From assembly GCA_018333535.1 (NCBI GenBank), contig JAGXTA010000046.1, forward strand, positions 20,551-84,550: a stretch of DNA of 64,000 nucleotides, given 5' to 3'. Position numbers and translations under genes: made by a program. Shown here piece after piece: positions 10,477-31,205 of the stretch; positions within the stretch are counted from its first letter, which is position 1, and every line of letters begins with the position of its first letter. This DNA is from Deltaproteobacteria bacterium (GTDB lineage: Bacteria > Desulfobacterota > BSN033 > UBA1163). The notes under the pieces were generated by a model. The model had not been told where the DNA came from. It searched no databases and saw nothing but the letters and a program-made list of their open reading frames with translations.

Positions 10477-10577
10477 CAAAACACACGCGACCCATTTAAC
10501 CAAAGGCTTCGCCTAAAGGCGAGGGTTTTTCTCCCATTCCCCGAATGGGAGAAAAAATATTCCTGAAGAAGTTGAAT

Positions 10578-11435: not shown

Positions 11436-11439
11436 AAAG

Positions 11440-11600: not shown

Positions 11601-11644
11601 ACTGGTTATTAATTGGTGATTGGAATTTCAACTAAGGAGGACAA

Positions 11645-12421
11645 ATGGGCTTCAGGTACACCATGATTGGCGCTGCCATATGTATCTTCATCTTCTACTT
11701 TGGCCTTCTTGCCTCGCTCCTCTTCTCGGCAAGCCTGAAGGGTTTCTGGGAATCCCTGTTGCATCCTTCCACCCTCTTCTCCATTCGGCTGAGCCTCATC
11801 GCCGCCACCCTCGCCACACTTTTAGCTGTGGCTATCGGTCTCCCGTCAGCCTATGCCCTCTCCCGCTTCCAATTCAGAGGAAAGCAAATCGTGGATACGT
11901 TTCTCGAAATTCCGATCATCATGTCGCCCATTGCCCTGGGCGCCTCATTCCTCGTCTTCTTTAATACTCCCTTGGGGGAAGCCATCCAGAGAAAAGGAAT
12001 CTTCTTCGTATTTGAATTTCCCGGCATCATCCTTGCTCAATTCGCCACCATTGCAGGTCTGGCAACCCGGCTGATGAAAGCCTCCCTTGATGAAATCTCT
12101 CCACGATATGAAGCCGTGGCCCGCTCTCTCGGCTCCTCCTCATGGCAGGCCTTTTATCGTGTTACACTTCCCCTCTCCTTCCGGGGGCTTTTAGCTGCGA
12201 TCATCCTCTCCTGGGCGAAGGCCGCAGGCGAGTTCGGCGCCACCGTGACTCTTGCAGGCGCCATGCCAGGAAAAACCGAGACCATGCCCATTGCCATCTT
12301 TACGGCTCTGGCTTCAGCCAACATAGAAAAGGCGATTGTTTTGATTCTCATCCTCGTCTTCCTTGGTTTGGTCGCACTCTACGCTGTCCGATTTACCGGA
12401 AAGATCTATCGTTATGATTAA
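11645..12421 (+). CDS. Molybdate/tungstate ABC transporter permease (ModB-like)
   Basis: Six TM segments and the EAA-like loop ...SWAKAAGEFGATVTLAG typical of ModB/CysTW permeases. RBS AAGGAGG lies upstream. Confidence 0.85.
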   Translation: MGFRYTMIGAAICIFIFYFGLLASLLFSASLKGFWESLLHPSTLFSIRLSLIAATLATLLAVAIGLPSAYALSRFQFRGKQIVDTFLEIPIIMSPIALGASFLVFFNTPLGEAIQRKGIFFVFEFPGIILAQFATIAGLATRLMKASLDEISPRYEAVARSLGSSSWQAFYRVTLPLSFRGLLAAIILSWAKAAGEFGATVTLAGAMPGKTETMPIAIFTALASANIEKAIVLILILVFLGLVALYAVRFTGKIYRYD

Positions 12422-12499
12422 GGGATCTTCTCCCAGTCGAGTGGGTAAAAACCTCATGCAGATATGGCTATTTATTATCCCCCTTTGGAAAAGGGCAAA

Positions 12500-12540
12500 C
12501 ACTAACATTCCCCCCCTTTGGCAAAGGGGGGCGAGGGGGG
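12500..12540. repeat. Palindromic hairpin CCCCCCCTTTGGCAAAGGGGGGCGAGGGGGG
   Basis: Perfect palindrome. A related copy lies at 12672-12712 (CCCCCTCTTTGCCAAAGAGGGGG) and another at 50985-51025. Confidence 0.5.
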
Positions 12541-12751
12541 ATTTTAAGAACAAATGCTTTCTTACGATAAACAGTTGAAAATATTTTCCCAGCATCTCAG
12601 AAAAAATATTACAGAGATGTCTTTGAGAATATGGGCGGAGTGATGGAAGGGATATGGAGTTGCTTATGATTTACAAAATCTCCCCTGCCCCCTCTTTGCC
12701 AAAGAGGGGGAGAGAAAAACCAGATATGACCCACTCGATAGGGAAAAGATT

Positions 12752-13846
12752 ATGATTAAGATTGAGGGGCTTACCATCCTTCTCGGTTCTTTTCGTTTAA
12801 AGGATTTCCACATTGAAATTGCGGAGGGAGAGTTTCACTTTCTCCTCGGTCCCACGGGTAGCGGGAAAACCCTGATCCTGGAGTCGATTATCGGACTGCA
12901 TAAACCCAAAAAAGGAAAGATATGGATTGGCGAAAAGGAGGTTCAAAACCTGCCTCCTGAGCGGAGGGAGATTTCTTATGTTCCTCAAGACCTGGCTCTC
13001 TTCCCGCATCTAAGTGTGAAGGAGAATATCCTTTATGGAATTAGGGCAAAAAATCACTCCTTAAAAACCTATGAGGAATATGTCGGGTCTCTCATTCAGG
13101 TCATGAAAGTTGGACATCTTCTCGAACGATACCCGGCCAATCTTAGCGGAGGGGAGAAGAAACGGGTGGCGCTTCTCAGAGCGCTGGCTCCAAAGCCAAA
13201 ACTCCTTTTGCTTGACGAGCCCCTCTCCGGTCTGGACCCCTCCATCAAATTTGAAATTCAGCAACTCTTAAAAACCCTCCACGCCTCTTTTCATCCAACG
13301 GTTTTATGTGTTTCCCATGACTTCGAGGAAGCCTACCTCCTGGGAGATAAGATGACCATTTTCATTGATGGAAAAGTGGAGCAGGTCGGAAAAAGAGACG
13401 ATGTTTTTTTAAAACCCAGATCCCAAAAGGTGGCACAATTTCTGGGGTTAAAGAATCTTTACAGGGGCAAAGTCCTGACAAAGGGGGAGGCCGATCAACG
13501 ATGGGTTCTCGACATCAACGGTCTCCGATTTTCCGTACCGGGCAGTGCCTGTCAGGATCAGATGGAGATAGGAAAAGAGGTGGACATCTACATCCGACCT
13601 GAAGAGGTGATGATCCTCCGTGAAGGGAAGTCTGTCAAAGAATCTCTGAAGAAGAATATCTTCGAGGGGAAAATTTCGGATATTGCCAATAGAGGCAGAC
13701 ACCATACCGTGGCATTCCAGGATGAAGAAAGACGGATCTTTTTCGAAATCTCCATTCCCAATTACGCCTTCCGGAATCTCGATCTGTCGATTGGTAAAAC
13801 CACAAAGGTCGCCCTCCGCGACGAATCCCTCTGGGTGATGGAATAA
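12752..13846 (+). CDS. Molybdate/tungstate ABC transporter ATP-binding protein with a C-terminal TOBE-like domain (ModC-like)
   Basis: Walker A GPTGSGKT, signature LSGGEKKRVAL and Walker B LLLDEP. The roughly 130-aa C-terminal extension is typical of ModC. Confidence 0.85.
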   Translation: MIKIEGLTILLGSFRLKDFHIEIAEGEFHFLLGPTGSGKTLILESIIGLHKPKKGKIWIGEKEVQNLPPERREISYVPQDLALFPHLSVKENILYGIRAKNHSLKTYEEYVGSLIQVMKVGHLLERYPANLSGGEKKRVALLRALAPKPKLLLLDEPLSGLDPSIKFEIQQLLKTLHASFHPTVLCVSHDFEEAYLLGDKMTIFIDGKVEQVGKRDDVFLKPRSQKVAQFLGLKNLYRGKVLTKGEADQRWVLDINGLRFSVPGSACQDQMEIGKEVDIYIRPEEVMILREGKSVKESLKKNIFEGKISDIANRGRHHTVAFQDEERRIFFEISIPNYAFRNLDLSIGKTTKVALRDESLWVME

Positions 13847-18427: not shown

Positions 18428-18650
18428 CTGAAAACTGGAAAGCATAAAATAGATATCATGTTTACCCCGTTAGAAAGCCTCAGCATTCCTGCCTGTCGGC
18501 AGACAGGTATGCTGAGGATGGTAGAAATAGAAAGCATCCCTGCCTGCGGCAGGCAGGAGCTCCTTATTTAGGGCGAGGTCAAACCCCTGCCCTTTCTGAC
18601 GGGGTTTACTCGCCCTCAATCTGAATCTCAATCTTTTTGGGTTTCTCGCA
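18428..18650. repeat. Direct repeat DR2 (about 223 bp) overlapping the authentic 3' end of mobB
   Basis: See DR1. Together the repeats bracket the hicAB cassette. Confidence 0.75.
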
Positions 18651-19256
18651 TCCCTTCAATGAACGGACCATTCCCTTAATCGACCCTAACAGGAAATCTC
18701 TGATAAAAGGTTTTAACGGAACGGCCCTGTCATCTACCCTTAGAGTGATTTGTTCTTCCTTTTTTGACTTTAAAAACTTCTTTTCGATAAAATCACCCAC
18801 TCCTTTGACATCATCAAGAAAGAAGCAGGAGACCCCGACATTGAACTCCTTGTCCGATACAATGGCGATGAGGTTATCCTCTTTGGTGCAGAGAAGCTCC
18901 TTGTGCTTTTCCGTTCTGAAGATTTCGATCTTCGGTTGGACATCCTTTTTGTAGCCCTCTGAAAGAATAAGGTCTACATCCTGAACCAACTTGTCCCGGA
19001 TTTCATCCAACCGTAAATCCTTCTCCACATCCCGGATCAGCGCCACTTTGGCAGGAGAGGAGATGATCGTTGTATGGGCGCCTGCCTGCTTATGCCGCCA
19101 GCTATCCTTCCCCTCCCGGTCCACCTCAAACCCGTGAACATCGTGCTTCACGGTTGCGATCCGGTAACCCCTGCGGACTAGCTCAGGCAAAAGTTTCTCG
19201 ATAAATGTGGTCTTTCCGCTATCTGACTTACCAACAATAGAAATGATGGGAATCAC
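18606..19256 (-). CDS. mobB: Molybdopterin-guanine dinucleotide biosynthesis adapter protein MobB
   Basis: IVGKSDSGKTTFIEKL...VKH Walker-A region. Probable GTG start with RBS AAAGGAG 6 nt upstream. The ORF track extends a further 25 codons upstream. Confidence 0.85.
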   Translation of the reverse strand: MIPIISIVGKSDSGKTTFIEKLLPELVRRGYRIATVKHDVHGFEVDREGKDSWRHKQAGAHTTIISSPAKVALIRDVEKDLRLDEIRDKLVQDVDLILSEGYKKDVQPKIEIFRTEKHKELLCTKEDNLIAIVSDKEFNVGVSCFFLDDVKGVGDFIEKKFLKSKKEEQITLRVDDRAVPLKPFIRDFLLGSIKGMVRSLKGCEKPKKIEIQIEGE

Positions 19257-19262
19257 GCTAAA

Positions 19263-19375
19263 CTCCTTTGGAATATTGGAATGTTGGAACAATGGAATAA
19301 TGGGGAAGGCTGAGAAGATTCTTTTCGACACAACATTCCATCATTCCATAATTCCATTCTTCCATGATCAAAAGT
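19263..19375. promoter_or_regulatory. Array of inverted TGGAAT/ATTCCA repeats between moeA and mobB
   Basis: GGAATATTGGAATGTTGGAACAATGGAATAATGG faces CATTCCATCATTCCATAATTCCATTCTTCC. This is either a long imperfect hairpin or an array of protein-binding sites. Confidence 0.45.
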
Positions 19376-20582
19376 TTCGTTCCAGCAATTGCACCTTCAC
19401 TTTCTCCCCTGCCCTGACAATCTCTTGGCTTTCGGGGATGACGATAAGGCCATTGGCCCTGACCATGGATCTCAATATCCCTGACCCCTGTGGACCTGTC
19501 GTTGTCACCGAATAGCCGTCGTTTTCAAATGAGACCATGGCCCGGATAAAATGTTTTTTCCCCGGCTCTTTACGAATTTCCTCCTTTAGAACAGCCTCGA
19601 TAACAGGCTGAAAGATTTGCCGATGGCCCATCATCTTCAAGAGCGATGGCCTTACAAACTGTTCAAAGGTGATCATGGAGGAAACAGGGTTTCCCGGAAG
19701 GCTGAAGGCTGGCTTCTTATCAAACATCCAGAAAGCCACGGGTTTCCCTGGTTTCATTGCGACTCTCCAGAATATCATCTCCACGCCCAGTTCCTTCAGG
19801 ACATCCCTGACGAAATCATAATCCCCTACGGAGACACCCGCTGACGAAATAAAAACATCAGACCGAAGCCCCTGAAGAATCTTCTTTTTAATCTCATCTT
19901 TTTGGTCTTTCGCAATTCCCAATTGAATCGGGATCGCTCCGCACTCCCTGACCTGGGCGGCCAATGTGTAGGAATTGCTGGAGACAATCTTCACCCCATC
20001 CAGGCTCTCACCCACATCCACCAGTTCCTCACCAGTACAGAGGACCGCCACTGATGGCCTTTGATAAACCGAGACGAATGACCTTCCCATAGAGGCAAGC
20101 ATCCCGATTTCTGATGGACGGATGATATCCCCTTTGGTGATCACCCGATCTCCCCTCTTTACATCCTCCCCTGCCCTTCGGATGTACCCACCGGGAAAAC
20201 CAGCCTTCAGAATGATGACAAAACCGTTTCCCCTTTCCGTCTCCTCAACAGGCACAACCGCATCAGCGCCTTTTGGGATGGGGGCGCCGGTCATAATTCT
20301 TATGGCCTGACCCTTTTGGACTGTTTTTTCCGAAATGAATCCAGCGCGAAGATCTTCAATCACTTCTAAGCGGACAGGATTCTTTTCAGAAGCATCCGGA
20401 ATATCTTCATACCTGACCGCATAACCGTCCATCCCCGAATTATCATAAGGGGGAAGATCACGAGGGGCAATCATATCCTCCGCAATCACCCGGCCCAGGG
20501 CATCCAGAATGGATACCTTCTCAAACCCCATGGGCTGGATGTGAGAAAGGGTTTTATCTAAGGCTTCTTCTACGGTGATCAT
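19368..20582 (-). CDS. moeA: Molybdopterin molybdotransferase MoeA
   Basis: 404 aa. MoeA N-terminal and MoCF-biosynthesis domains. SGMDGYAV motif. Confidence 0.9.
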   Translation of the reverse strand: MITVEEALDKTLSHIQPMGFEKVSILDALGRVIAEDMIAPRDLPPYDNSGMDGYAVRYEDIPDASEKNPVRLEVIEDLRAGFISEKTVQKGQAIRIMTGAPIPKGADAVVPVEETERGNGFVIILKAGFPGGYIRRAGEDVKRGDRVITKGDIIRPSEIGMLASMGRSFVSVYQRPSVAVLCTGEELVDVGESLDGVKIVSSNSYTLAAQVRECGAIPIQLGIAKDQKDEIKKKILQGLRSDVFISSAGVSVGDYDFVRDVLKELGVEMIFWRVAMKPGKPVAFWMFDKKPAFSLPGNPVSSMITFEQFVRPSLLKMMGHRQIFQPVIEAVLKEEIRKEPGKKHFIRAMVSFENDGYSVTTTGPQGSGILRSMVRANGLIVIPESQEIVRAGEKVKVQLLERNF

Positions 20583-20697: not shown

Positions 20698-20726
20698 TTG
20701 ACAAGTTATGAGCATATGCTTATAAT
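20698..20726 (+). promoter_or_regulatory. Consensus sigma-70 promoter whose spacer contains the palindrome AGCATATGCT
   Basis: TTGACA at 20698-20703, a 17-nt spacer, then TATAAT at 20721-20726. About 25 nt upstream of the DUF134 ATG. Lies in the divergent region with moeA. Confidence 0.6.
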
Positions 20727-20750: not shown

Positions 20751-21227
20751 ATGGCAAGGCCAAGACATTGCAGGCGAGTAGAGTGTATTCCTGGAAGCAG
20801 ATACTTTAAACCCAGAGGTATCCCTCTTTCTTCATTAGAGGAAGTCATTTTAACTGTTGATGAATTCGAGGCTATCAGACTGGCTGACCTTGAGGGTTTA
20901 TATCAGGAGCAGGCAGCAGAAAAGATGAACATTTCTCGCCAAACCTTTGGAAGGATTATCGAATCAGCACATCAAAAGGTGGCCGATGCGTTGGTTCAGG
21001 GGAAGGCATTAAAGATTGAAGGAGGTGAGTTTGAAATGGCAGAGAGGAGAAAGTTTAAATGTTATGACTGCCAACACACCTTGGAACTTCCTTACGGAAC
21101 GGGTAGACCGGAGAATTGTCCTTCCTGCAAAAGTGGCAACATTCGCAGAGCAGAAGAAGACAGGGGGAGTGCAAGAGGTTTTGGCAATAGGCAAAAGAGG
21201 GATTGTTTTCGATCTCAGGCAAAATAG
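20751..21227 (+). CDS. DUF134 (UPF0251) family predicted DNA-binding protein with a C-terminal zinc ribbon
   Basis: Hallmark N-terminus MARPRHCRRV. The C-terminus has CYDCQ...CPSCKSG. Confidence 0.8.
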   Translation: MARPRHCRRVECIPGSRYFKPRGIPLSSLEEVILTVDEFEAIRLADLEGLYQEQAAEKMNISRQTFGRIIESAHQKVADALVQGKALKIEGGEFEMAERRKFKCYDCQHTLELPYGTGRPENCPSCKSGNIRRAEEDRGSARGFGNRQKRDCFRSQAK

Positions 21228-21292
21228 CAATGAAGAAAACATTATCGAAGCGTGACAAAATAAATGGACACCCAATAAGAAAGGAGAAAATC

Positions 21293-21532
21293 ATGAAAGT
21301 AGGTTTTGCAGTTCAGACGAACGAAGGAATGGAAAGCAGGGTTTATGATCATTTTGGCTCGGCCCCGGCATTCATCATTGTCGATACCGAAGGGAAAGAG
21401 GTCTTAACAATTAATAATAAGGACTTGCACCATCTTCACGGCGCATGCAATCCAATCATGGCGCTTGATGGGAAGAGCGTCGATGCAATGGTCGTGGGTG
21501 GCATAGGAGCAGGCGCATTGACGAAGTCAGAC
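21293..21532 (+). pseudogene. NifX/NafY-like (dinitrogenase FeMo-cofactor biosynthesis domain) gene, N-terminal fragment interrupted by an IS200/IS605 insertion
   Basis: RBS AAGGAGA. MKVGFAVQTNEG...HFGSAPAFIIVD...MVVGGIGAGAL matches the intact paralogs at 25201 and 25587. The sequence after GAGALTK diverges into IS-end hairpins. Confidence 0.7.
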
Positions 21533-22170
21533 ACCCCCCGCAAAGCGGGTGGCTTGATGAGCGGGGCTGCCTCAAAGGCAGTCGACCCGATAGCTAAACG
21601 TTGCGCTAAAGCGCACCTCAGTTGCCAAATTAAAAATGTTCTCCCGTTCCATCCGCTTCCTCTTGATCGCGGATGTATTGGCGAACTTGCTCTATCTGAA
21701 ATCCAACGGTGGATACCGCATATCCCCGAGCCCAAAGATGTTCCCCTGTGAAATTCCTCTCCTTGCCGCATAGCTGCCTTGAGATCGCAATCGCACTCTT
21801 CCCTTTCAAAAAACCGATCACAGAAGCAACCGCATACTTTGGGGGAATCGCAATACACACATGAACATGATCGGGCATCAGATGACCTTCCAGAATTTGG
21901 CATTCTTTCTGCCGAGCCAAGGCATGAAATATTTCACCTAGGTGGCGTCGTGCCTGCCCAAACAGGGCTCTCCGTCTCTTCTTTGGGATAAACACCACAT
22001 GGTATTTGCAATCCCATTTCGAATGAGATAAGCTTCGATAACCCTGAAAACTTTCTTCCATAACATCCTCCTGTGCCGTTTGCTTTTCTCATCAAGCCAC
22101 GGGAGGATGTTATGCTCAACGGTCAAACCTTTTCAAGTCGCACTGGTAAAACCAGTGGCTTACCTAAATT
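21533..22170. mobile_element. IS200/IS605-family insertion sequence (TnpA only)
   Basis: Contains the HuH Y1 transposase ORF. Subterminal hairpins CCCGCaaaGCGGG, CTGCCtcaaaGGCAG and TGCGCtaaaGCGCA lie at one end, and CACTGGtaaaaCCAGTG at the other. The element splits the NifX-like gene. Confidence 0.8.
21630..22061 (-). CDS. tnpA: IS200/IS605 family transposase TnpA (HuH Y1)
   Basis: 143 aa with SKWDCKYHVVFIPKKRR and the HVHVCIAIPPKY HuH motif. Confidence 0.9.
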   Translation of the reverse strand: MEESFQGYRSLSHSKWDCKYHVVFIPKKRRRALFGQARRHLGEIFHALARQKECQILEGHLMPDHVHVCIAIPPKYAVASVIGFLKGKSAIAISRQLCGKERNFTGEHLWARGYAVSTVGFQIEQVRQYIRDQEEADGTGEHF

Positions 22171-22324
22171 CGAGTTAAACGCATCGGGGATAAGAGTATA
22201 CGGAGCCGGGGCTTCAACCGTAAAAGAAAACCTTTTCCTATTAAGCGAAAATAAGCTCCAGGAGCTTTCGGCGTACAATGCCTGCCGAGCCCATCAGGGC
22301 GGATGCGGACATCAACAAGAATAG
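22166..22324 (+). pseudogene. NifX-like gene, C-terminal fragment displaced by the IS insertion
   Basis: ELNASGIRVYGAGASTVKENLFLLSENKLQE aligns with ALSASGIKVYLVPGGTIREVTEAFKDGKLQE of the paralog at 25587. Confidence 0.65.
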
Positions 22325-22353
22325 TTTGTGAATCAGACAGTTGAGGAATCTTC

Positions 22354-23691
22354 GTGAAAGGGAAAGAGCCGGATAAATTTTTTAATGTCATTCTCAATAG
22401 CATTGCCGATGGGGTGTTCACCACCGACAATGATGGCAAAATCACCTTTATGAATAAAGCTGCTGAGGAGATTACGGGATTTTCGAATAAGGAGGCTATC
22501 GGCCGTTACTGCTTTGACATCTTTCGGGCAGATATCTGTCAGACCAGATGTGCGTTGAAAGAAACCCTCCAGACAAAAAAAGAGATCATCAATCTCAATG
22601 CTACCATTTTGAAGAAGGGAGGCCAAAAAGTCCCCATCAGTATTAGCACTGCTGTATTGAAGAATGAGCGAGGACAAATCATAGGAGGAGTTGAAACCTT
22701 TCGGGATCTCTCTGTCATTGAAGAACTTAAGAAAGAACTCGCCGAAAAATATTCGATTGGCGATATCATAAGTAAAAATCACCTGATTTATGACATCTTC
22801 AACATTCTTCCCGATGTCGCAGAGAGCGATAGCACGGTTCTGATTCAAGGGGCCAGCGGCACGGGAAAAGAGCTTTTTGCAAAGGGCATTCACCATTTGA
22901 GCCGGAGAAAAGAAAAACCTTTCATCAAGGTAAATTGTGGCGCCCTTCCGGATACTCTCCTTGAGTCGGAACTCTTCGGGTACGTCAAGGGAGCCTTTAC
23001 GGATGCGAAAAAAGACAAACCGGGAAGGTTTGCCCTGGCCAACGGGGGAACCTTATTTCTCGATGAGGTAGGGGATATGTCCCCTTCCCTTCAGGTGAAG
23101 TTGCTTCGTGTTCTCCAAGAAAAAGAGTTCGAACCCCTGGGTTCGACGAGTCCCAGAACAACCGATGTCCGAATCATTGCGGCCACCAACAAAGACCTTT
23201 TAAAACTGATGGAAATAGGAAAATTCAGGGACGACCTCTTTTACCGGATCAATGTGGTGAAAATCGAGCTTCCTCTCCTTTCACAGAGAAAGGAGGACCT
23301 CCCCCTGCTCATTGATAGCTTTATTAGGAAATTCAACGCAAAGATGGGAAAACGCATCACCAGGGTATCCGATCAGGCCTTAAGGGTTCTTTTGCGATAT
23401 GATTATCCCGGGAATGTGAGAGAACTTGAAAATATCCTGGAGCATGCCTTTGTTCTCTGTAGGGGAAATCTGATCGATCTTGATTGTCTTCCAAAAGAAA
23501 TGACAGGTGACCAAACGGAAATCGCCTCCTCTTTGCTAACCGATGAGAAGAACCCTCTCGATCAAGCCGAGGCAGAAACCATCCGGCAGGTGTTGAAGAA
23601 ATATGGAGGAGACCGAACCAAAGCAGCCAACGAATTGAGTGTCGGCCGCACAACCCTCTGGAGGAAAATGAAAAAGTATCGGCTTGCCTGA
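22354..23691 (+). CDS. Sigma-54-dependent transcriptional activator with an N-terminal PAS domain and a C-terminal Fis-type HTH
   Basis: PAS region (FNVILNSIADGVFTTDNDGKITFMN), AAA+ sigma-54 interaction domain (GASGTGKELFA...GAFTDA...ESELFG) and C-terminal HTH (RTKAANELSVGRTTLWRKM). Confidence 0.85.
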   Translation: MKGKEPDKFFNVILNSIADGVFTTDNDGKITFMNKAAEEITGFSNKEAIGRYCFDIFRADICQTRCALKETLQTKKEIINLNATILKKGGQKVPISISTAVLKNERGQIIGGVETFRDLSVIEELKKELAEKYSIGDIISKNHLIYDIFNILPDVAESDSTVLIQGASGTGKELFAKGIHHLSRRKEKPFIKVNCGALPDTLLESELFGYVKGAFTDAKKDKPGRFALANGGTLFLDEVGDMSPSLQVKLLRVLQEKEFEPLGSTSPRTTDVRIIAATNKDLLKLMEIGKFRDDLFYRINVVKIELPLLSQRKEDLPLLIDSFIRKFNAKMGKRITRVSDQALRVLLRYDYPGNVRELENILEHAFVLCRGNLIDLDCLPKEMTGDQTEIASSLLTDEKNPLDQAEAETIRQVLKKYGGDRTKAANELSVGRTTLWRKMKKYRLA

Positions 23692-23841
23692 AGGTGCTGA
23701 GACTGGCCTGTCTCATTCTAGCAACTGTTTCATTCAATCCGTTTCATTTATGAAACACAATAAAATCTCCCTTCTTTTCCCCCATAACTTGCATCTCCTC
23801 TAACCTTTTGATATCTCATCTTTTTTATTAAAGCTGATGTT

Positions 23842-23856
23842 TGGCACCTATCTTGC
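23842..23856 (+). promoter_or_regulatory. Sigma-54 (-24/-12) promoter TGGCAC-N5-TTGCT
   Basis: Exact match to the core consensus. It sits 14-20 nt upstream of the two candidate start codons of the NifB/NifX-like gene and directly downstream of the sigma-54 activator gene. Confidence 0.5.
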
Positions 23857-23875
23857 TCTTAATAAGCTCATGGAG

Positions 23876-24256
23876 ATGAAGATTGCAATTCCACTTTTTG
23901 GAACTCGGATTTCACCCCGTTTTGACTTCTCCCAAGAGATTCGGATCATTACGGTAGAGGATGGGAAAGTGGTCCGGAAAGAGAACTTCCCGGTTGCTCA
24001 TCTTAACCTCAGTCAGCGTCTCGACCAATTGGCTTCCAACGGAGTGAGCAAGGTGATTTGTGGCGGAATTGATGGATTCTGCTTAAATCAATTGGGAAGT
24101 AAAGGGATTGAGGTTGTCCACAATGTGGCAGGAGAGGCTGAAATCGCCTCCGACCTTTTCATGAAAGGAAAGCTTCGGACAGGCTTTTGCTGTGAAGGAA
24201 GAGGAAGAAGACGTTTTTGTGTTTGGAAGAAAGGTTCCAGAGGAAGGAGGATATAA
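23876..24256 (+). CDS. NifB/NifX-like dinitrogenase FeMo-cofactor biosynthesis domain protein with a Cys-rich tail
   Basis: MKIAIPLFGTRISPRFDFS...VICGGI...GIEVV. The C-terminus has FCCEGRGRRRFC. The alternative ATG at 23870 is in frame. Confidence 0.75.
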   Translation: MKIAIPLFGTRISPRFDFSQEIRIITVEDGKVVRKENFPVAHLNLSQRLDQLASNGVSKVICGGIDGFCLNQLGSKGIEVVHNVAGEAEIASDLFMKGKLRTGFCCEGRGRRRFCVWKKGSRGRRI

Positions 24257-25204
24257 ATGGCCGAAGAAAAATGTAAAAAAGATGCAGTCTGCGATACCTG
24301 TAACGAATCCAGCTCTTGCAGTCAGCAGGAAAAAGAGGCCCATGCCCAGGAGAGATTGAAATCGAAACTCTCGCATATCCAACATCGAATCATGGTGATG
24401 AGCGGAAAGGGCGGCGTCGGGAAAAGTACCGTATCGACTAATTTGGCTGTTGCACTATCTCTGGATGGGTTCAACGTCGGGCTCCTCGATGCGGACATTC
24501 ATGGCCCCAACATTCCCAAGATGCTTGGAATTGAATCCAAGCATGTGGAGGGATCAGACAAGGGGATGATTCCGGTTGAGGTCTTTCCGAACTTGAAGGT
24601 CATTTCCATGGCCTTTTTCATCGGTGATCGGGATAATCCAGTGGTCTGGAGAGGTCCCCTTAAGCATGGCGCCATCAGCCAATTTCTTGGAGAAGTGGAC
24701 TGGGGAAACCTCGATTTTCTCGTCGTCGATCTTCCTCCTGGGACGGGGGATGAACCGTTAAGTGCAGCTCATCTCATTAAGAATGTGGATGGCTCTATTA
24801 TCGTAACCACTCCTCAGGATGTTGCCCTGCTCGATTCTCGAAAGGCTGTTACCTTCAGTCGGATGCTCAGTATTCCTGTGATTGGGATTGTTGAAAACAT
24901 GAGTGGATTGGAATGTCCTCACTGCCATAAAGAGATTCCTCTTTTTAAGATCGGTGGAGGAGAAAAGGCTGCCCGTGACATGAAGGTTCCCTTTCTTGGA
25001 AGGATCCCTATCGATTCAGAGATGGTTATCGATTGTGATAGAGGAATGCCGTTTGTTATGGCTCATCCAAAATCGGAGGCAGCTAAGGCCTTTAAGGAGA
25101 TAGCCCACCGCTGTAAGGAGTATGTGGGATTCAAGGAGACAGAGAAACAATCTGAAAGGGAAAAATTTCCCTATCATTTCAAAGAACAGGAGGTGAAGAG
25201 ATGA
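24257..25204 (+). CDS. mrp: Mrp/NBP35 (ApbC) family Fe-S cluster carrier ATPase
   Basis: Walker A SGKGGVGKST, CPHCHKEIPLF cluster-binding motif and N-terminal CDTCNESSSC. Confidence 0.9.
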   Translation: MAEEKCKKDAVCDTCNESSSCSQQEKEAHAQERLKSKLSHIQHRIMVMSGKGGVGKSTVSTNLAVALSLDGFNVGLLDADIHGPNIPKMLGIESKHVEGSDKGMIPVEVFPNLKVISMAFFIGDRDNPVVWRGPLKHGAISQFLGEVDWGNLDFLVVDLPPGTGDEPLSAAHLIKNVDGSIIVTTPQDVALLDSRKAVTFSRMLSIPVIGIVENMSGLECPHCHKEIPLFKIGGGEKAARDMKVPFLGRIPIDSEMVIDCDRGMPFVMAHPKSEAAKAFKEIAHRCKEYVGFKETEKQSEREKFPYHFKEQEVKR

Positions 25205-25590
25205 AAAGAATTGCATTAGCTTCTGAAGATGGTTCTGGCCTCGATGGATTGCTGAGTGCCCATTTTGGCAGATGCCCTTTCTATACCTTTGTCAATGTGG
25301 AAGGAGATCGGATTCTGGGATCTGAAGTAGTCAAGAATCCTTACTTTCCAAACCATACACCGGGAGTCATTCCCGAGTTTATCCATTCACAAAAGGCGAA
25401 TGTGATGATCGCAGGAGGAATGGGGCCGAGGGCCATCGACTTTTTCACCCAATTTGGGATTGACGTCGCTACAGGGGCCCAGGGGAAAGTGAAGGATATT
25501 GTTGAGGCCTATTTGAGAGGCGAAATTCAGGGAATCGTTGCTTGTGAGCATCACGGGCATGATCATGAATGTCAGGAGGAGAAACGATGA
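25201..25590 (+). CDS. NifX-like dinitrogenase FeMo-cofactor biosynthesis domain protein
   Basis: MKRIALAS...HFGRCPFYTFVNV...MIAGGMGPRAIDFFTQFGIDV. Start overlaps the mrp stop. Confidence 0.8.
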   Translation: MKRIALASEDGSGLDGLLSAHFGRCPFYTFVNVEGDRILGSEVVKNPYFPNHTPGVIPEFIHSQKANVMIAGGMGPRAIDFFTQFGIDVATGAQGKVKDIVEAYLRGEIQGIVACEHHGHDHECQEEKR

Positions 25591-26126
25591 AAGTTGCTGT
25601 CAGCGCAACAGGAAAAGACCTCAATTGCCAAATCGATCCAAGGTTTGGAAGATGCCAGTATTTTATCTTTATCGATCCTGAGACCATGGAGTTTGATGCC
25701 TTTGGGAATGAAGGGTTAATGGCAATGGGTGGTGCCGGGGTTCAGGCCGCACAGCTTATTGTCCAAAAAGGGGCAAGCGCTCTGATTACGGGCAATCTTG
25801 GACCCAATGCCGCTTCAGCTCTCTCAGCATCAGGAATCAAAGTCTACTTAGTTCCTGGAGGGACAATAAGGGAAGTTACCGAAGCATTCAAGGATGGAAA
25901 ACTTCAGGAGGCAAGTGGGCCTACGGTTCCTCCTCATTTTGGAATATCCCCTTCTCCATCCCTCTCCCCCAAGAGACTGTGTCGTAATTCCGTTCATGGT
26001 TCGAGAGCCTCACCACGAACGGATTATGACATGTTGAAAATCAATCACTTAGCCGTTCGTCCTGAGCGTGTCGAAGGGCGAATGGCTAATTATGACACAG
26101 TCTCCAAGGGGAGAGGGCGAGGGTGA
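25587..26126 (+). CDS. NifX-like domain protein with a low-complexity C-terminal tail
   Basis: MKVAVSATGKDLNCQIDPRFGRCQYFIFID...ITGNLGPNAASAL...GIKVY. The last about 200 nt are highly structured DNA, so the true C-terminus is uncertain. Confidence 0.65.
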   Translation: MKVAVSATGKDLNCQIDPRFGRCQYFIFIDPETMEFDAFGNEGLMAMGGAGVQAAQLIVQKGASALITGNLGPNAASALSASGIKVYLVPGGTIREVTEAFKDGKLQEASGPTVPPHFGISPSPSLSPKRLCRNSVHGSRASPRTDYDMLKINHLAVRPERVEGRMANYDTVSKGRGRG

Positions 26127-26257
26127 GGGGGAGTATGGGTGGCCGTAGAGGTTAAAGAACGAATATTACGAATAGCTACGAATTATTCGAATAAAATCCT
26201 TTCGTTAAATTCGGTACCATTTGAATAATTCGCCTGTGAAAGAAAGGAAGGATAATT

Positions 26258-26470
26258 ATGCCTTACGGAATGGGACCTGCTGGATGGAGACACCATCCTT
26301 ATGGATATGGGAGAGGCTGGTGTTGGAACCCCGGGTCGTACGGAGCGCCTGTTCCACCATGGGGATCTCCAACCAAAGAAGATGAAATCCGATTTCTTGA
26401 AGAGGAAGCCAATTTCCTTCGAGGAGAGTTAGGCCAGATTGAAAAAAGGCTCGACGAACTGAAAAAATAA
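26258..26470 (+). CDS. DUF5320 family small protein, paralog 1
   Basis: Gly/Pro/aromatic-rich N-terminus (MPYGMGPAGW...GYGRGWC). C-terminal coiled helix (EEEANFLRGELGQIEKRLDELKK). RBS GGAAGG. Confidence 0.65.
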   Translation: MPYGMGPAGWRHHPYGYGRGWCWNPGSYGAPVPPWGSPTKEDEIRFLEEEANFLRGELGQIEKRLDELKK

Positions 26471-26478
26471 AAATGCTT

Positions 26479-26615
26479 TAGGGTAAAGGTTAGGAAGCCG
26501 GTTTAGTATTTGGTCATAGGGTTACGGCTTAAAAATTTTAAGCCCCGACTACGTAACCCTTTAACGAAACCGGCATCTTAACCCTAACCTTCCGACTAAC
26601 GACTTTTATTCGAAG
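26479..26615 (+). other. Nested palindromic RNA/DNA structure between DUF5320 paralogs
   Basis: The outer arms TTAGGGTAAAGGTTAGGAAGCCGGTTT and AAACCGGCATCTTAACCCTAACC enclose AGGGTTACG-[GCTTAAAAATTTTAAGCC]-...CGTAACCCT. Confidence 0.4.
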
Positions 26616-26628
26616 GGAGGTGTTTTCT

Positions 26629-26889
26629 ATGCCAGGATTTGATGGAACAGGGCCACGAGGGATGGGCCCAATGACTGGAGGAGGCAGAGGCTTTTGTGCA
26701 ATGCCAAACAGAGGCTACGGTCCATCCGGGTATAGCATGCAGGCACCTTATTATCCACCTTCCGGTGGTTATCCATTTTATGGAAGATCATTTTCCGGCC
26801 CCGTCTTTGGCGCAGGCCGTGATGGCCTCCCATGGGGTGGAGGCCGCGGAAGATGTTTTGGTGGCGGGCGAGGGTTCCGTCGTTGGTAG
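26629..26889 (+). CDS. DUF5320 family small protein, paralog 2
   Basis: MPGFDGTGPRGMGPMTGGGRGFC hallmark. RBS GGGAGGTG. The ORF track begins at an upstream GTG at 26620. Confidence 0.7.
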   Translation: MPGFDGTGPRGMGPMTGGGRGFCAMPNRGYGPSGYSMQAPYYPPSGGYPFYGRSFSGPVFGAGRDGLPWGGGRGRCFGGGRGFRRW

Positions 26890-27047
26890 TGGCAATTTGT
26901 AGTGATTGCATGGGGGCCATCGATGGAACCCAACCCCCTAACCCCTTTAGGGGAGAAGGGAGACCTGCCTACCGGCAGGCATGGGGAGTATTTCTTGCGC
27001 TATACTCTGTGCGCTATGCGGTTTTGTAGGTATAGGAGGTGATAAAA

Positions 27048-27278
27048 ATGCCAAGAGGAGACGGAAAATGTCCCCCCGGAGGCAGTGGTCCAGGAACAGG
27101 AAGGGGTGCCGGAATGGGTGGATCTCGTAAGGGAAGAATGGGTGGTTCCAAAGCAGGTGCAGGCCCTGGAGGAGAATGTATGTGTCCAAAATGCGGGACG
27201 ACTGCTCCTCATGAGGCTGGAGGGCCTTGTTCATTTAAGAACTGCCCGAAATGCGGTGCAAAGATGGTGAGAAAATAA
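27048..27278 (+). CDS. DUF5320-like small protein, paralog 3, with a C-terminal CxxC...CxxC zinc ribbon
   Basis: MPRGDGKCPPGGSGPGTGRGAGMGG... followed by CPKCG...CPKCG. RBS TAGGAGGTG. Confidence 0.65.
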   Translation: MPRGDGKCPPGGSGPGTGRGAGMGGSRKGRMGGSKAGAGPGGECMCPKCGTTAPHEAGGPCSFKNCPKCGAKMVRK

Positions 27279-27300
27279 TTTATTCGATAAGAAAACGAAA

Positions 27301-27777
27301 TTGGATTTAAAAATAGGGGAATCCATGAATGAAATGTTGACCGGTCAAAAAAGGCAGGGAGAAGTCAATCTACACAGAAATTGTTTTGCCTGTGGTTCAA
27401 ATGTCGGAATAGGTTTAGGACTAAAGTTTTATAAGAATGAAGATGGAGCTGTCTTCGGAAGTTTCTTTGCAGATTCGAAGTTTGAAGGTTATTCGGGCAT
27501 CATTCATGGAGGAATTATAGCTACTCTGTTGGATTCTGCGATGACCCACTGTCTCTTAATGAAAGATATCCCTGCCCTCACGGGAAGATTGTCGATCAAG
27601 TATTCTACCCCCATTCGAACAGGAACAGTTGTGAAGTTAGAAGCAAGGATTGTTGACCAAGTCCATGAAATGTTCATTTTACAAGGGAAGGCTTGGGTGG
27701 ATGGGAAGAAGGTGGCAAGTGCAGAGGCCAAATATAGGAGCATGAAAAGAAGGGGCAATCAAGAGGCGAAGAAATGA
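27301..27777 (+). CDS. PaaI/hotdog-fold thioesterase family protein
   Basis: GIIHGGIIATLLDSAM motif and length. Confidence 0.75.
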   Translation: MDLKIGESMNEMLTGQKRQGEVNLHRNCFACGSNVGIGLGLKFYKNEDGAVFGSFFADSKFEGYSGIIHGGIIATLLDSAMTHCLLMKDIPALTGRLSIKYSTPIRTGTVVKLEARIVDQVHEMFILQGKAWVDGKKVASAEAKYRSMKRRGNQEAKK

Positions 27778-27992
27778 CGCTTTTCCCATCTAAGGATCCT
27801 TCTTTAGAAAATAAATTGATCGGGAATATTCTAAGGGAATATCCCCGGATGGCCAGGATCATGGAAAGATATTTTGGTGGACATTGCCTGGAAAGGTCTG
27901 GCTTTAAGATCCAGACACTCGGGATGGCCTGCATCCTATTCGGCGTCGATCAGAAGCAGTTGCTTCAAGAATTTGAGAAAATCCAAAATTGA
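27774..27992 (+). CDS. DUF1858 domain protein (hybrid-cluster-protein-associated redox disulfide-like)
   Basis: IGNILREYPRMARIMERYFGGHCLERSGFKIQTLGMACILFGVD matches the DUF1858 pattern (Y-P...HC...C...TL.EA....G.D). Confidence 0.6.
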   Translation: MTLFPSKDPSLENKLIGNILREYPRMARIMERYFGGHCLERSGFKIQTLGMACILFGVDQKQLLQEFEKIQN

Positions 27993-28951
27993 TAGACATG
28001 ACAAAAAACCCAAGTGGCCCGAAATACATCTTTGGACCGGTTCCTTCCAGAAGATTGGGAAGATCCTTGGGAGTCGATCTTGTCCCATATAAAACCTGTA
28101 CCTTTGATTGCATCTATTGCGATTTGGGAAGGACCACTTTTAAAACAACCTCTCGAAAATCTTATGTATCAACTGAGGAAGTCCAAAGGGAACTGGATCT
28201 TACTTTATCTCCCTTAGAAAAGAAGCCAGATTACATTACTCTCTCCGGGTCAGGGGAGCCCACATTGAATCAAAATATTGGAGATATCATCCACACCATC
28301 AAGCATTGGACTTCTATCCCTGTGGCAGTTCTAACGAACGGCTCTCTCCTCTCTATCGAAGAAGTCAGAAAAGATTTAATTGATGCCGATGTGGTTTTGC
28401 CTTCTCTCGATGCCATCAACGACGTGACTTTCCAGTGTTTGAACAGACCTCACCCGTCGTTAAAAATAGATGAAATCATTTTGGGTCTCATTCAATTTCG
28501 AAATCAGTATCGAGGCCAAATCTGGCTCGAAGTGGTCTTTTGCAGAGGGATAAACGACGATAAAGAGGAGATTGAAAGACTCAAAGGGATCATCGAAAGA
28601 ATCCAGCCCGATAGGGTTCAATTGAACACACCCGTCAGGCCGCCTGCTGAAGAATTTGCTTATCCCTTAACAACAACTCAGATTGAAGAAATAAGGAAAA
28701 AATTGGGAGATAAGGCGGAGATTATTTCTGAATTTACTGCTCCCCTGGGAGAAGAATTTAACTCCGTGAAGGATACAGAGATTCTTAACTTGATCAAGAG
28801 AAGACCTTGCACAACGGAAGATATTTCTAAAGCTCTTGGACTCCGTATAGATGAAGTTGTGAAGCATTTAGATCATCTTACAAAAACAGGGCCAATCCGA
28901 TATCGAATGTATGAGCACCATTGTTATTACGAGTTTAATGTAACTAATTGA
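27989..28951 (+). CDS. Radical SAM protein (COG0731-like) with a C-terminal winged-helix-like region
   Basis: CTFDCIYCDLG CX3CX2C motif near the N-terminus. 320 aa. Confidence 0.8.
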   Translation: MIDMTKNPSGPKYIFGPVPSRRLGRSLGVDLVPYKTCTFDCIYCDLGRTTFKTTSRKSYVSTEEVQRELDLTLSPLEKKPDYITLSGSGEPTLNQNIGDIIHTIKHWTSIPVAVLTNGSLLSIEEVRKDLIDADVVLPSLDAINDVTFQCLNRPHPSLKIDEIILGLIQFRNQYRGQIWLEVVFCRGINDDKEEIERLKGIIERIQPDRVQLNTPVRPPAEEFAYPLTTTQIEEIRKKLGDKAEIISEFTAPLGEEFNSVKDTEILNLIKRRPCTTEDISKALGLRIDEVVKHLDHLTKTGPIRYRMYEHHCYYEFNVTN

Positions 28952-29023
28952 AAAAACCCTCCCCTTTTCCCCTCTCCCTGCTGGGGATAGGGTAAGGGTG
29001 AGGGGTGACAGGTAACGAAGATC

Positions 29024-29890
29024 ATGATCATTTCAATCGCAAGCGGGAAAGGAGGGACCGGAAAGACCACCATCGCCGTTAATTTAGCTCTCTCTCTATC
29101 AAAAGGGACTGTCCAACTAATTGATTGCGATGTGGAGGAACCTAATTCCCACCTTTTTCTATCCCCCACCATCCACCAGGTTACCTCTATGGGAATTCCG
29201 GTCCCCCGAATTGATGAATCAAAATGTACATATTGCGGCAAATGTGGAAAGGTCTGTGAATACCATGCAATTGCTGTCATTTTGAAAAACGTTCTGGTTT
29301 TCGACGAGCTCTGCCACGGATGCGGTGCCTGCTCTTACTTATGCCCAGAAAAAGCCATATTCGAAGTGGAAAGAGAGATTGGAATTGTCCAGGAAGGAAG
29401 TGCGGATGGAATTCCATTCGTTAATGGAGTTCTTAATATTGGAGAACCCATGGCTTCTCCACTGATCCGGAAGGTAAAGGAGAGTATTCAAAAGGATAAA
29501 ACCGTCATTCTCGATGCCCCTCCAGGGACAGCCTGCCCTGTTATTGAAACCGTCAAAGGAAGTGATTTTTGCGTCCTCGTTACAGAGCCGACCCCCTTTG
29601 GGCTGAATGATTTAGAGTTAGCTGTAGGAATGTTGGAAAAATTAGGAATTTCGATGGGAGTTGTAATCAACAAGGCGGATGTTGGGGACCGAGAAGTCTG
29701 GGATTACTGCCAATCGAAAAATATCCCTATTTTAATGGAAATTCCCATGGATCGGAGGATTGCTGAATCCTATTCAAGGGGAGTTCCAATTGTTGTCGAA
29801 TATCCTTCTTACAAGCAGGGATTCAAAGGTCTATTTGAAAAGGTGGAGAAACTCCATGAGTCAAGTCGAAGAAATGGAGCAGTTAAGTGA
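29024..29890 (+). CDS. MinD/ParA-type P-loop ATPase with a 2x[4Fe-4S] ferredoxin insert
   Basis: Walker A ASGKGGTGKTT, then CTYCGKCGKVCEYHA and CHGCGACSYLCP ferredoxin motifs. Confidence 0.85.
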   Translation: MIISIASGKGGTGKTTIAVNLALSLSKGTVQLIDCDVEEPNSHLFLSPTIHQVTSMGIPVPRIDESKCTYCGKCGKVCEYHAIAVILKNVLVFDELCHGCGACSYLCPEKAIFEVEREIGIVQEGSADGIPFVNGVLNIGEPMASPLIRKVKESIQKDKTVILDAPPGTACPVIETVKGSDFCVLVTEPTPFGLNDLELAVGMLEKLGISMGVVINKADVGDREVWDYCQSKNIPILMEIPMDRRIAESYSRGVPIVVEYPSYKQGFKGLFEKVEKLHESSRRNGAVK

Positions 29891-30320
29891 TGAGGTGGGC
29901 TACCTCGTCTATAATGAAACGTTGATCGATCACTTTATGCATCCCAGAAATGCGGGAGAAATAGAAAACCCCGATGCAATGGCGACCGTTGGTGATCCTA
30001 CCTGCGGGGATTTTATTAGGGTGTACCTGAAGGTGGAAGCCGGGAAGATATCCGTCTTTAAATTTTTGACCCAGGGTTGTCCTGGAGCCATTTCCACTTC
30101 CAGCATTGCCACAGAAATGGCTATTGGTAAGACTCTCGATGAGGCGTTGAAATTGACAGACAACGATGTGATCGAAGCTGCCGGTGGCATCCCGTCAAGA
30201 AAAGCCCACTGCTCCCTTCTGGCAATCAGAGGATTGCATCAGGCCATTTTGAATTATCACACCTCATCCCATCCCTCGCCCCAAGAAGGAAGGGGGGAGG
30301 GTGAAGAGGAAAGGAAGTAG
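29856..30320 (+). CDS. NifU N-terminal/IscU-like Fe-S cluster scaffold domain protein
   Basis: HFMHPRNAG...GDPTCGD...TQGCPGAISTSSIATEM...GKTLDEA. RBS GGTGGAG. The C-terminal 17 aa are encoded by a G-rich REP element. Confidence 0.8.
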   Translation: MSQVEEMEQLSDEVGYLVYNETLIDHFMHPRNAGEIENPDAMATVGDPTCGDFIRVYLKVEAGKISVFKFLTQGCPGAISTSSIATEMAIGKTLDEALKLTDNDVIEAAGGIPSRKAHCSLLAIRGLHQAILNYHTSSHPSPQEGRGEGEEERK

Positions 30321-30323
30321 TAA

Positions 30324-31205
30324 GTGGAACAAAATGAAATTAAACAATTAGCCATTGTCAGTGGAAAAGGTGGAACAGGAAAAACCACTCTTGCTGCTGC
30401 TTTTGCCGCTTTAGCTAAGAATAAAGTGATGGTGGACTGCGATGTGGACGCGGCAGACCTGCATCTCTTGCTTCAGCCGAAGATCCTAATGCAAGAGAAG
30501 TACTTTGGGGGAAGATCACCGCATGTCGATTTGGATAAATGCACCCAGTGTGGGCTCTGTACTGAGGTATGCCGCTTCCATGCCATTGATAATGGGGTGG
30601 TTGATCCTGTTTCGTGTGAGGGGTGTGGCTTTTGTAGACACATTTGCCCTGAAGAAGCCATTGTGATGGAAGAGGCTTTTTCAGGAGATTGGTTTGTCTC
30701 CGAAACACCCTATGGTCCATTTGTCCATGCACGATTGGGAATAGGAGAGGAGAATTCCGGTAAACTCGTAACTGTCGTCCGAAAAAAAACGGTTGAGATT
30801 GCAAAAGAGAAGAACCTTGACCTCATACTGATCGACGGCCCCCCAGGCATCGGATGTCCGGTCACGGCCTCGTTGACCGGAGTGAATCTGGTCTTAGCCA
30901 TCACAGAGCCTACTCTTTCAGGAATTCATGATTTGGAAAGAATCTTGAAACTCTCCGATCACTTTAAAATTCCCTCGATGGTCTGCGTCAATAAATTCGA
31001 CATTAACCTTGAGAATACGGCCCAAATAGCATCCTACTGCAAGAAGAACGGTTCCCGCCTCATCGGTCAAATTCCTTACGAGCCAAAAGTGGTCGAGGCA
31101 CTGGTTCAAAGGAAGACAGTGATAGACTACCCTTGCAATGAAGTTCAGGGGATTTTGCTCAAGATGTGGCAGGGCATAGAGATGACTCTGCGGGGCGAAG
31201 CATGA
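30324..31205 (+). CDS. MinD/ParA-type P-loop ATPase with a 2x[4Fe-4S] ferredoxin insert (second paralog)
   Basis: Walker A VSGKGGTGKTT, then CTQCGLCTEVCRFHA and CEGCGFCRHICP. Confidence 0.85.
   Translation: MEQNEIKQLAIVSGKGGTGKTTLAAAFAALAKNKVMVDCDVDAADLHLLLQPKILMQEKYFGGRSPHVDLDKCTQCGLCTEVCRFHAIDNGVVDPVSCEGCGFCRHICPEEAIVMEEAFSGDWFVSETPYGPFVHARLGIGEENSGKLVTVVRKKTVEIAKEKNLDLILIDGPPGIGCPVTASLTGVNLVLAITEPTLSGIHDLERILKLSDHFKIPSMVCVNKFDINLENTAQIASYCKKNGSRLIGQIPYEPKVVEALVQRKTVIDYPCNEVQGILLKMWQGIEMTLRGEA

Follow-up and report, generated by a model that had tools for sequence, protein, structure and literature searches.

An IS200-group insertion sequence within a PF02579 gene of an orp-type cluster in a Deltaproteobacteria bacterium

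The 64,000-nucleotide stretch of contig JAGXTA010000046.1 analysed here, hereafter the window, comes from a Deltaproteobacteria bacterium (assembly GCA_018333535.1) and holds, from the ATG at 21293 to the stop at 22324 of its plus strand, a disrupted gene of the PF02579 (Nitro_FeMo-Co / MTH1175-like) family. We are highly confident that a 648-bp element of the IS200 group, with tnpA as its sole gene, has inserted into this 127-residue gene, which is part of a cluster of the orp (orange-protein complex) type. A sequence-only reading of the window had described an IS200/IS605 insertion sequence (IS) splitting a gene at these coordinates, and this description is borne out, the element being a bounded unit of 648 bp at 21526-22173. 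The intervening DNA does separate the two gene fragments, as that reading had it, but its length is 648 bp (±1 nt) and not 'about 640 bp'.

A PF02579 gene split within codon 78

The disrupted gene was recognized in the list of open reading frames (ORFs), and its 5' part was delimited by Pfam, in-silico excision and alignment. This part occupies positions 21293..21525 of the plus strand and comprises codons 1-77 together with the first two bases (AA of AAG) of codon 78 (Lys78). The frame that opens at ATG 21293 encodes MKVGFAVQTNEG…VVGGIGAGALTK, then enters unrelated IS sequence and reaches a stop at 21751. The present-day ORF starting at 21293 is a 152-residue chimera that ends inside the IS: it consists of 77 genuine residues, a Ser in place of Lys at residue 78, and a tail of 74 residues that the antisense strand of the IS supplies. 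This chimera is annotated as a gene in other assemblies, and the 152-residue 'Nitro_FeMo-Co' gene call is hereby explained as half a gene joined to antisense IS sequence. The 3' part of the gene (22174..22324, plus strand), delimited by excision and ortholog alignment, runs from the third base of codon 78 to the stop and covers residues 79-127; this second frame, with its stop at 22324, encodes …LNASGIRVYGAGASTVKENLFLLSENKLQELSAYNACRAHQGGCGHQQE.

The N-terminal fragment matches Pfam Nitro_FeMo-Co over positions 2-69 of the 94 in the profile (46.6 bits), and the C-terminal fragment alone gave no Pfam match. Deletion of 21526-22173 in silico joined …GCA TTG ACG AA|G TTA AAC GCA… within codon 78 and yielded an in-frame ORF of 384 nt encoding 127 residues; the reconstructed empty site reads …GCATTGACGAAGTTAAACGCATCG…. 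The spliced product matches PF02579 in Pfam with 68.7 bits over profile positions 2-89 of 94. Comparison of the split gene with the solved orange proteins gave no significant match in the PDB; the best was TM1290 (structure 1RDU), with which the spliced product aligns continuously over residues 11-112.

Homologues of the spliced product are numerous and uninterrupted (1482 at E<=1e-10). The best 120 of these 1482 are 82-92% identical to it with a coverage of 93% or more, and most measure 124-126 residues; for the intact orthologues of that size the identity is 85-92%, over 98% of the product. When aligned with its orthologues and with the three other PF02579 paralogs of the window, the spliced 127-residue product shows no gap across the junction GAGALTK|LNASG, and two orthologues read GAGALTKLNASG exactly at this point. 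The proposal that the N- and C-terminal parts belong to one gene matching the paralogs is thus upheld. A syntenic locus, L016, contains an uninterrupted orthologue of 126 residues (87% identity) in the gene order MoeA, DUF134, orthologue, 445-residue sigma-54 activator, small PF02579-like gene, Mrp, PF02579, PF02579, DUF5320. The possibility that the two fragments are unrelated genes was addressed by this ortholog alignment, in which they are colinear with uninterrupted orthologues, the syntenic one included. At the nucleotide level, the empty site of the orthologues reads …GC(A/G)AAGTTAAATGC… and places GTTAA, the complement of TTAAC, exactly at the position of the IS. No base of the empty site is duplicated at the occupied site in this nucleotide alignment, which shows that there is no target-site duplication.

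These alignments indicate that the two fragments are the halves of one gene split by insertion. The protein has a single domain, and the insertion point, in codon 78, falls midway through it. Because the domain is cut in its middle, neither fragment is expected to fold, and the chimeric product is almost certainly non-functional. The three further PF02579 paralogs may buffer the loss of the split gene.

The IS200-group element, its ends and its relatives

To map the boundaries of the element, 12 related copies were aligned first, then metagenome copies that had been found with the left-end sequence, and the orientation was taken from tnpA. The complete IS (648 bp, tnpA only) lies on the minus strand at 21526..22173 (±1 nt, from the multi-copy end alignment). 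Its three parts are the left end (LE, 112 nt) on the high-coordinate side, tnpA (432 nt) and the right end (RE, 104 nt) on the low-coordinate side. The top strand of the LE (22062..22173, minus strand; multi-copy alignment) starts 5'-TCGAATTTAGGTAAGCC..., and that of the RE (21526..21629, minus strand; multi-copy alignment and DNA folding) ends 5'-...GGGGGGTGTCTGAC-3'. The ambiguity of 1 nt reflects a base that flank and element have in common at each junction. About 20 distinct flanks all leave the window sequence at the identical two positions, and divergence is full outside TCGAATTTAGGTAAGCC… / …GGGGGGTGTCTGAC. The same flanks were used to ask whether the TnpA frame lies outside a bounded element; it is located inside a sharply bounded unit.

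The same unit is present in unrelated contexts, with 13 distinct full-length sequences and about 20 flanks in many metagenomes. Full-length copies of the family are 91-97% identical, and the units measure 648-650 bp. The element of the window matches the family consensus exactly over the 112-nt LE and at all but two positions of the RE. Four of the metagenome loci (L008-L010 and L012) have a common left IS flank, and the two of them that pass the right end, L009 and L010, differ in their right flank. This points to repeat-induced assembly chimeras or to recombination between copies in those metagenomes.

The LE is preceded by the tetranucleotide 5'-TAAC-3' of the minus strand (22174..22177; GTTA when read on the plus strand), which was identified from about 20 sites and from empty sites. 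In some 20 distinct insertion sites TAAC stands 5' of the LE; the sole exception is a TAAT copy, whose site was also found with TAAC. The base preceding TAAC is variable, mostly T, and the base following the RE is usually T. The RE finishes ...CTGAC (…GTCTGAC), and terminal inverted repeats are lacking: the two ends read TCGAATTT... and ...GTCTGAC. Since the distinct sites, about 20 in number, carry TAAC abutting the LE, the comparison identifies TAAC as the target and left cleavage tetranucleotide, with the related TGAC ending the element. The cleavage sites that the sequence-only reading had asked for, TAAC on the left and TGAC on the right, are in this way proposed from the multi-copy alignment.

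The tnpA gene (21630..22061, minus strand) encodes an intact Y1 HUH transposase of 143 residues with the motifs H65-V-H67 and Y129-I-R-D-Q133, as analysed with Pfam, NCBIfam and the PDB. The match to Pfam Y1_Tnp (E 1.8e-34) and the H65-V-H67 motif agree with the minus-strand TnpA and HuH motif that had been noticed from the sequence. The NCBIfam IS200 equivalog scores 133.7 bits against a cutoff of 55, while the REP_Tyr_transpos model gives 35 bits, under its cutoff of 80. TnpA is homologous to the solved structures 2EC2, 2F4F, 2VJV, 2A6M and 2XM3 (best E 4e-26; 4e-17 for 2VJV/2A6M of IS608 and 4e-13 for 2XM3 of ISDra2), and its HUH (H65-V-H67) and Y129-x3-Q133 motifs are aligned with those of the Sulfolobus TnpA structure 2EC2. 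Nearly all scored candidates are homologues at E<=1e-20 (7987 of 8000). Dozens of nearest homologues share 94-97% identity and are found mostly on short contigs, as would be expected of a repeat that breaks assemblies. In PLSDB, the nearest plasmid-borne IS200/IS605 transposase is at most 65.6% identical, and the ISMex34-family 62%. There is no tnpB in the window, and no other ORF of the element has a family match. By its sequence features the element is a further member of the known IS200/IS605 family (IS200 subgroup). A literature search for an IS200/IS605 element targeting TAAC found nothing, an absence that is no evidence of novelty; the element is probably without an existing IS name.

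Subterminal hairpins had been proposed at the ends of the element, and DNA folding reveals them at both. On the minus strand, the RE contains a terminal hairpin CCCGC/GCGGG (21537-21549), a second hairpin CTGCC/GGCAG (21567-21581) and a third hairpin GCGC/GCGC (near 21603-21615), with a DNA fold of -22.3 kcal/mol (z -2.4). The LE carries a subterminal hairpin CACTGG-TTTTA-CCAGTG (22141-22157, minus strand) and, according to the promoter scan, a sigma-70-like promoter TTGAAA-18-TAACAT (22136-22107, minus strand). The heptamer AAGCCAC is found at the 5' foot of both the LE hairpin (~22141-22147) and the RE hairpin, the hairpin sequences being otherwise different. Both hairpins are preceded by AAGC, and one base further 5' there is a T in the LE and a C in the RE. 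Conjecturally, this T/C base could covary with the second base, A or G, of TAAC/TGAC.

The 5' untranslated region (5'UTR) of tnpA folds into a stem-loop (22059..22114, minus strand) whose 17-nt arms, at 22059-22075 and 22098-22114, are 94% complementary. In this structure the AGGAGG Shine-Dalgarno (SD) sequence and the tnpA start codon AUG pair with an anti-SD sequence upstream of them; the folding energy is -31.2 kcal/mol (z -4.1), which 0 of 200 shuffles equalled. A stem-loop that represses translation by occluding SD and AUG is the design of Salmonella IS200, and by analogy the expression of tnpA is probably held low by this hairpin. In Rfam, searched with the gathering threshold over the whole window and at E<=5 over the IS region, the matches were confined to a tRNA in another part of the window and to miRNA hairpins that resemble the 5'UTR stem-loop by chance; the stem-loop has no curated RNA family there. 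Among the 13 distinct full-length copies, the LE shows 0-2 differences in 112 nt versus 17-49 in the 432 nt of tnpA. On this comparison the cis elements appear more constrained than the transposase gene.

The element resembles IS200 of Salmonella and E. coli in its unit of ~0.65-0.7 kb with a Y1 HUH tnpA alone and subterminal hairpins, in the absence of inverted repeats and of target duplication, and in the LE 5'UTR stem-loop that occludes the ribosome-binding site, a generally known trait of the Salmonella element. It differs from IS200 in that it targets TAAC and in that its hosts are uncultured anaerobe-type genomes.

The resemblance extends to IS608 of Helicobacter pylori and ISDra2 of Deinococcus radiodurans, which have a homologous TnpA. 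In these systems, too, a fixed tetra- or pentanucleotide borders the LE and insertion takes place on its 3' side, and the right end closes with a related tetranucleotide that belongs to the element. In the window element the left cleavage site precedes the foot of the LE hairpin by 16 nt, compared with 19 nt in IS608, and the right cleavage site follows the foot of the RE hairpin by ~11 nt, compared with 10 nt (PMC3201880). The cleavage tetranucleotides of IS608 are TTAC on the left and TCAA on the right (PMC3201880), whereas those of the window element are TAAC and TGAC. Unlike IS608 and ISDra2, the window element has no tnpB, and the rule by which guide and cleavage site pair in IS608 could not be mapped onto it.

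By analogy with these two systems, the element would have arrived by single-strand 'peel-and-paste' transposition carried out by a Y1 TnpA dimer. TnpA would bind the hairpins and cleave at TAAC| on the left and at TGAC| on the right. The predicted circle junction between RE and LE reads …GGGGTGTCTGAC|TCGAATTTAGG…. IS608 and ISDra2 are known to reseal the donor precisely (PMC5027513, PMC3201880); on excision such resealing would restore the wild-type ORF. The disruption would thus be reversible in principle, because peel-and-paste transposition reseals the donor precisely.

Relatives in another phylum were found in one scan of genome contigs with a 28-nt LE block, whose matches lie solely in metagenome-assembled genomes of filamentous cyanobacteria (Leptolyngbyaceae, Pegethrix, Scytolyngbya, Stenomitos; L020-L037). 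These IS200-like elements contain the exact 28-nt LE hairpin block and, in two subfamilies, the TAAC target. Positions 9-56 of the LE are kept at 92-96%, and the RE terminus is 85% identical, ending GGGGGTGTCTGAC. Their 5'UTR hairpin likewise sequesters the SD and has the loop motif GGTGGCTTGA in common with that of the window element, but its sequence is different. The overall nucleotide identity is 66-72%, that of tnpA ~70%, and TAAC is separated from the hairpin block by 11 or 17 nt versus 9 nt in the window element. The first and second RE hairpins show compensatory changes in the cyanobacterial elements: CCCGC/GCGGG of the first is replaced by CCGGC/GCCGG or CCAGC/GCTGG, and CTGCC/GGCAG of the second by CCGCC/GGCGG. 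From the lineage of the window to the cyanobacteria, the IS ends and the TAAC target are better conserved than tnpA.

A sequence of 13 nt in the loop of the 5'UTR hairpin (22088-22100) is the perfect complement of a stretch at the foot of the terminal RE hairpin that includes AAGCCAC (21549-21561). This complementarity is invariant in the 13 distinct copies, a core of 10-13 nt is kept in the cyanobacterial relatives despite their overall divergence, and we estimate its chance expectation at ~1e-4. It might represent a hitherto undescribed regulatory link between the IS ends, either through 5'UTR-3'UTR pairing in the tnpA mRNA or through autoregulation by TnpA, which together with precise excision would turn insertions of this kind into a switch for the orp regulator unit that is both reversible and tunable; we regard this as unlikely.

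Alternative explanations of the split gene

The intact appearance of TnpA and of both ends raises the question of whether the insertion acts as a reversible genetic switch, in which excision by TnpA would restore the PF02579 gene, and possibly normal expression of the orpR-like gene, so that the population toggles the orp cluster. The exact restoration of the ORF by in-silico excision, the position of the split gene directly upstream of the cluster regulator and the precise resealing known for IS608 and ISDra2 (PMC5027513, PMC3201880) speak for such a role. However, there is no evidence of polymorphism, since the occupied allele is the only one on record and the three assemblies that contain it are identical. 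Moreover, reversibility is common to every IS200/IS605 insertion and implies no selection for switching, and the insertion site is merely one of many TAAC sites. A switching role is therefore quite improbable in our view.

A second explanation sees in TnpA a domesticated, single-copy transposase of the type associated with repetitive extragenic palindromes (REP), namely a REP-associated tyrosine transposase (RAYT), or an immobile relic. A few homologues do bear the JGI name 'REP-associated tyrosine transposase', the gene is single-copy in the window, and the NCBIfam RAYT model gives a weak match of 35 bits. This score is far under the cutoff of 80, however, while the IS200 equivalog passes its own; no REP arrays flank the element, the 648-650-bp unit occurs in ~20 unrelated flanks beside TAAC, and related loci show the empty site. 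The model scores and the multi-site alignment led us to exclude the RAYT or relic reading, which we hold to be extremely unlikely. Very unlikely, too, is an assembly artefact, that is, a repeat-induced chimera that placed an IS copy in an intact gene. The family is repetitive in metagenomes, most of its copies sit on short broken contigs, and the common left flank of L008-L010 with the differing right flanks of L009 and L010 shows that chimeras or variants occur. Yet both junctions of the split gene are at the positions expected from transposition (3' of TAAC, without duplication and with the ORF restored to the base), which a random misjoin would not produce, and different pipelines (ENA megahit, Logan) yield the identical structure.

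Insertion of an IS200-group element into the PF02579 gene thus remains the reading that we favour, and a number of points weigh against particular parts of it. As to activity of the element in the window's own genome, no second IS copy is present within the 64-kb window, and the exact TnpA sequence is on record solely at this locus. The insertion is also present in two other assemblies, whose sequence agrees with the window at 100%; these do not represent independent strains and have no bearing on fixation. That the insertion is recent and tolerated is plausible; 'recent' is based solely on the absence of secondary damage in the 384 bp, and for the same strain the records contain no allele without the insertion, the closest match being 92% identical. 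For guide tetranucleotides of the IS608 style, no register was found with four consistent pairs to TAAC/TGAC. Lastly, a polar effect on the OrpR-like activator downstream, considered below with its gene context, is plausible and purely inferential.

The orp-type cluster around the insertion

From its gene content, region 20751-31205 is a cluster of the orp type and not a nif cluster. It contains DUF134, four PF02579 genes, an OrpR-like activator, DUF5320 and Mrp. The term 'NifX-like' that had been used for the split gene is a domain-level label only: the PF02579 domain behind it is present (68.7 bits), but the context is orp-type and the scanned ORFs include no nitrogenase. Indeed, the scan, which took in the ORFs of the cluster region and 30 other large ORFs of the window, revealed no member of the nitrogenase, NifEN and NifB families. 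In the NCBIfam MrpORP model, it is the C-terminal domain that is matched by the window's PF02579 proteins.

The DUF134 gene (20751-21227, plus strand; ORF list and family scan) is preceded by a perfect 12/12 sigma-70 consensus, TTGACA-17-TATAAT, which the promoter scan located at 20698..20726 on the plus strand. This site is likely the promoter of a transcription unit made of DUF134, the split gene and the orpR-like gene. On the evidence of gene order, the split gene is the second gene of this DUF134, PF02579, orpR-like unit, which heads the orp-type cluster.

The third gene (22354..23691, plus strand) starts 29 nt 3' of the split gene and encodes an OrpR-like sigma-54 enhancer-binding protein of 445 residues with the Pfam domains PAS, AAA+ and HTH_8. 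It is intact, has the same length as the L016 orthologue and possesses the Cys triad C53-x8-C62-x3-C66 together with D55. In OrpR of Desulfovibrio vulgaris, the triad C52/C61/C65 and the acidic residue D/E54 define a [4Fe-4S] redox-sensing PAS domain (PMC8359166). At two other loci, L015 (2824-4162) and L017 (2596-3934), the OrpR-like gene is called as two pieces of 113 and 336 residues, which may be due to a frameshift or a sequencing error.

Between 21295 and 22353 the scan detected no promoter-like site on the plus strand, and within the IS no terminator-like site on that strand, a result by which polarity is neither supported nor excluded. Expression of the OrpR-like gene may fall because the gene starts 29 nt downstream of the split gene without a detected promoter-like site. 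Lower expression through polarity would in turn lead to less sigma-54-dependent expression of the orp operon. The motif scan found a sigma-54 -24/-12 consensus TGGCAC-N5-TTGC (TGGCACctatcTTGC) at 23842..23856 on the plus strand, the only perfect one in the 64 kb, 20 nt upstream of the ATG at 23876. We presume it to be the OrpR-dependent promoter of the downstream orp operon. This promoter falls inside the longest ORF call of paralog 2 (ATG 23837; 23837-24256). Because of this overlap we place the start of paralog 2 at ATG 23876 (MKIAIPLFG…), which matches the L016 orthologue and is almost certainly the true start.

Further downstream lie the Mrp ATPase gene (24257-25204), which matches positions 1-261 of the MrpORP profile with 369.8 bits, under the full-length cutoff of 450, and a gene overlapping it (25201-25590), which matches positions 266-364 with 79 bits. 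Because these adjoining genes match positions 1-261 and 266-364, the MrpORP architecture appears to be split over two genes. In the downstream part of the region, the family scan then identified a gene of the radical-SAM type (27989-28951) and, at 29024-29890 and 30324-31205, two Orp3/Orp4-like ATPases of the ParA/CbiA type into which 4Fe-4S (ferredoxin) domains are inserted. Molybdenum genes stand upstream of the cluster, namely modABC-like genes (10545-13846), mobB (18606-19331) and moeA (19368-20582); a further one, MoCF_biosynth, is found at 55601-56650. The modABC-like, mobB and moeA genes are circumstantial evidence as regards a bound Mo/Cu-S heterometallic cluster, which, with a role in cell division, belongs to the orp complex. 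The host would be an anaerobe possessing orp genes, sigma-54 and Mo metabolism.

The region resembles the orp cluster of D. vulgaris Hildenborough (OrpR = DVU2106) in its PF02579 proteins, its Mrp/NBP35 ATPase, its ParA ATPases with 4Fe-4S inserts, its PAS/AAA+/HTH sigma-54 activator with C-x8-C-x3-C and an acidic residue at C+2, and the sigma-54 promoter before the structural operon (PMC8359166). It differs in that the genes of the window are colinear and not arranged in two divergent operons, in that MrpORP is represented by two genes, and in the addition of DUF134 and DUF5320.

The significance of the insertion is mainly one of annotation: this is an ordinary transposon disruption that will not surprise a specialist. 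The ends and the TAAC target are defined for a widespread and apparently unnamed IS200-group element, and the split gene, which immediately precedes that of an OrpR-like regulator, constitutes a natural knockout in a cluster of the orp type; it would test paralog redundancy and polarity in this little-understood system if the organism were studied.

Two observations concern the surroundings of the element. The plus-strand GC skew passes from ~-0.02 (1-24 kb) to ~+0.12 (24-56 kb), near a change of gene orientation at ~20.6 kb; this switch could reflect gene-strand bias or a replication landmark. At the IS, beside the switch, the skew is near zero and uninformative on a lagging-strand insertion bias. 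The other observation bears on the three remaining PF02579 paralogs, which had been described as intact. Their PF02579 domains are, but the fourth paralog (25587-26126) has a 132-bp palindromic insert resembling a miniature inverted-repeat transposable element (25973-26104), which lies in frame (45 codons) in the C-terminal tail. The insert has no second copy in the window; its terminal inverted repeats are GAGACTGTGTCGTAATT / AATTATGACACAGTCTC, and a 3-bp direct repeat, CAA, flanks it. The fourth paralog consequently counts 179 residues, versus 134 in the gene at 6025-6429 of the syntenic locus L016.

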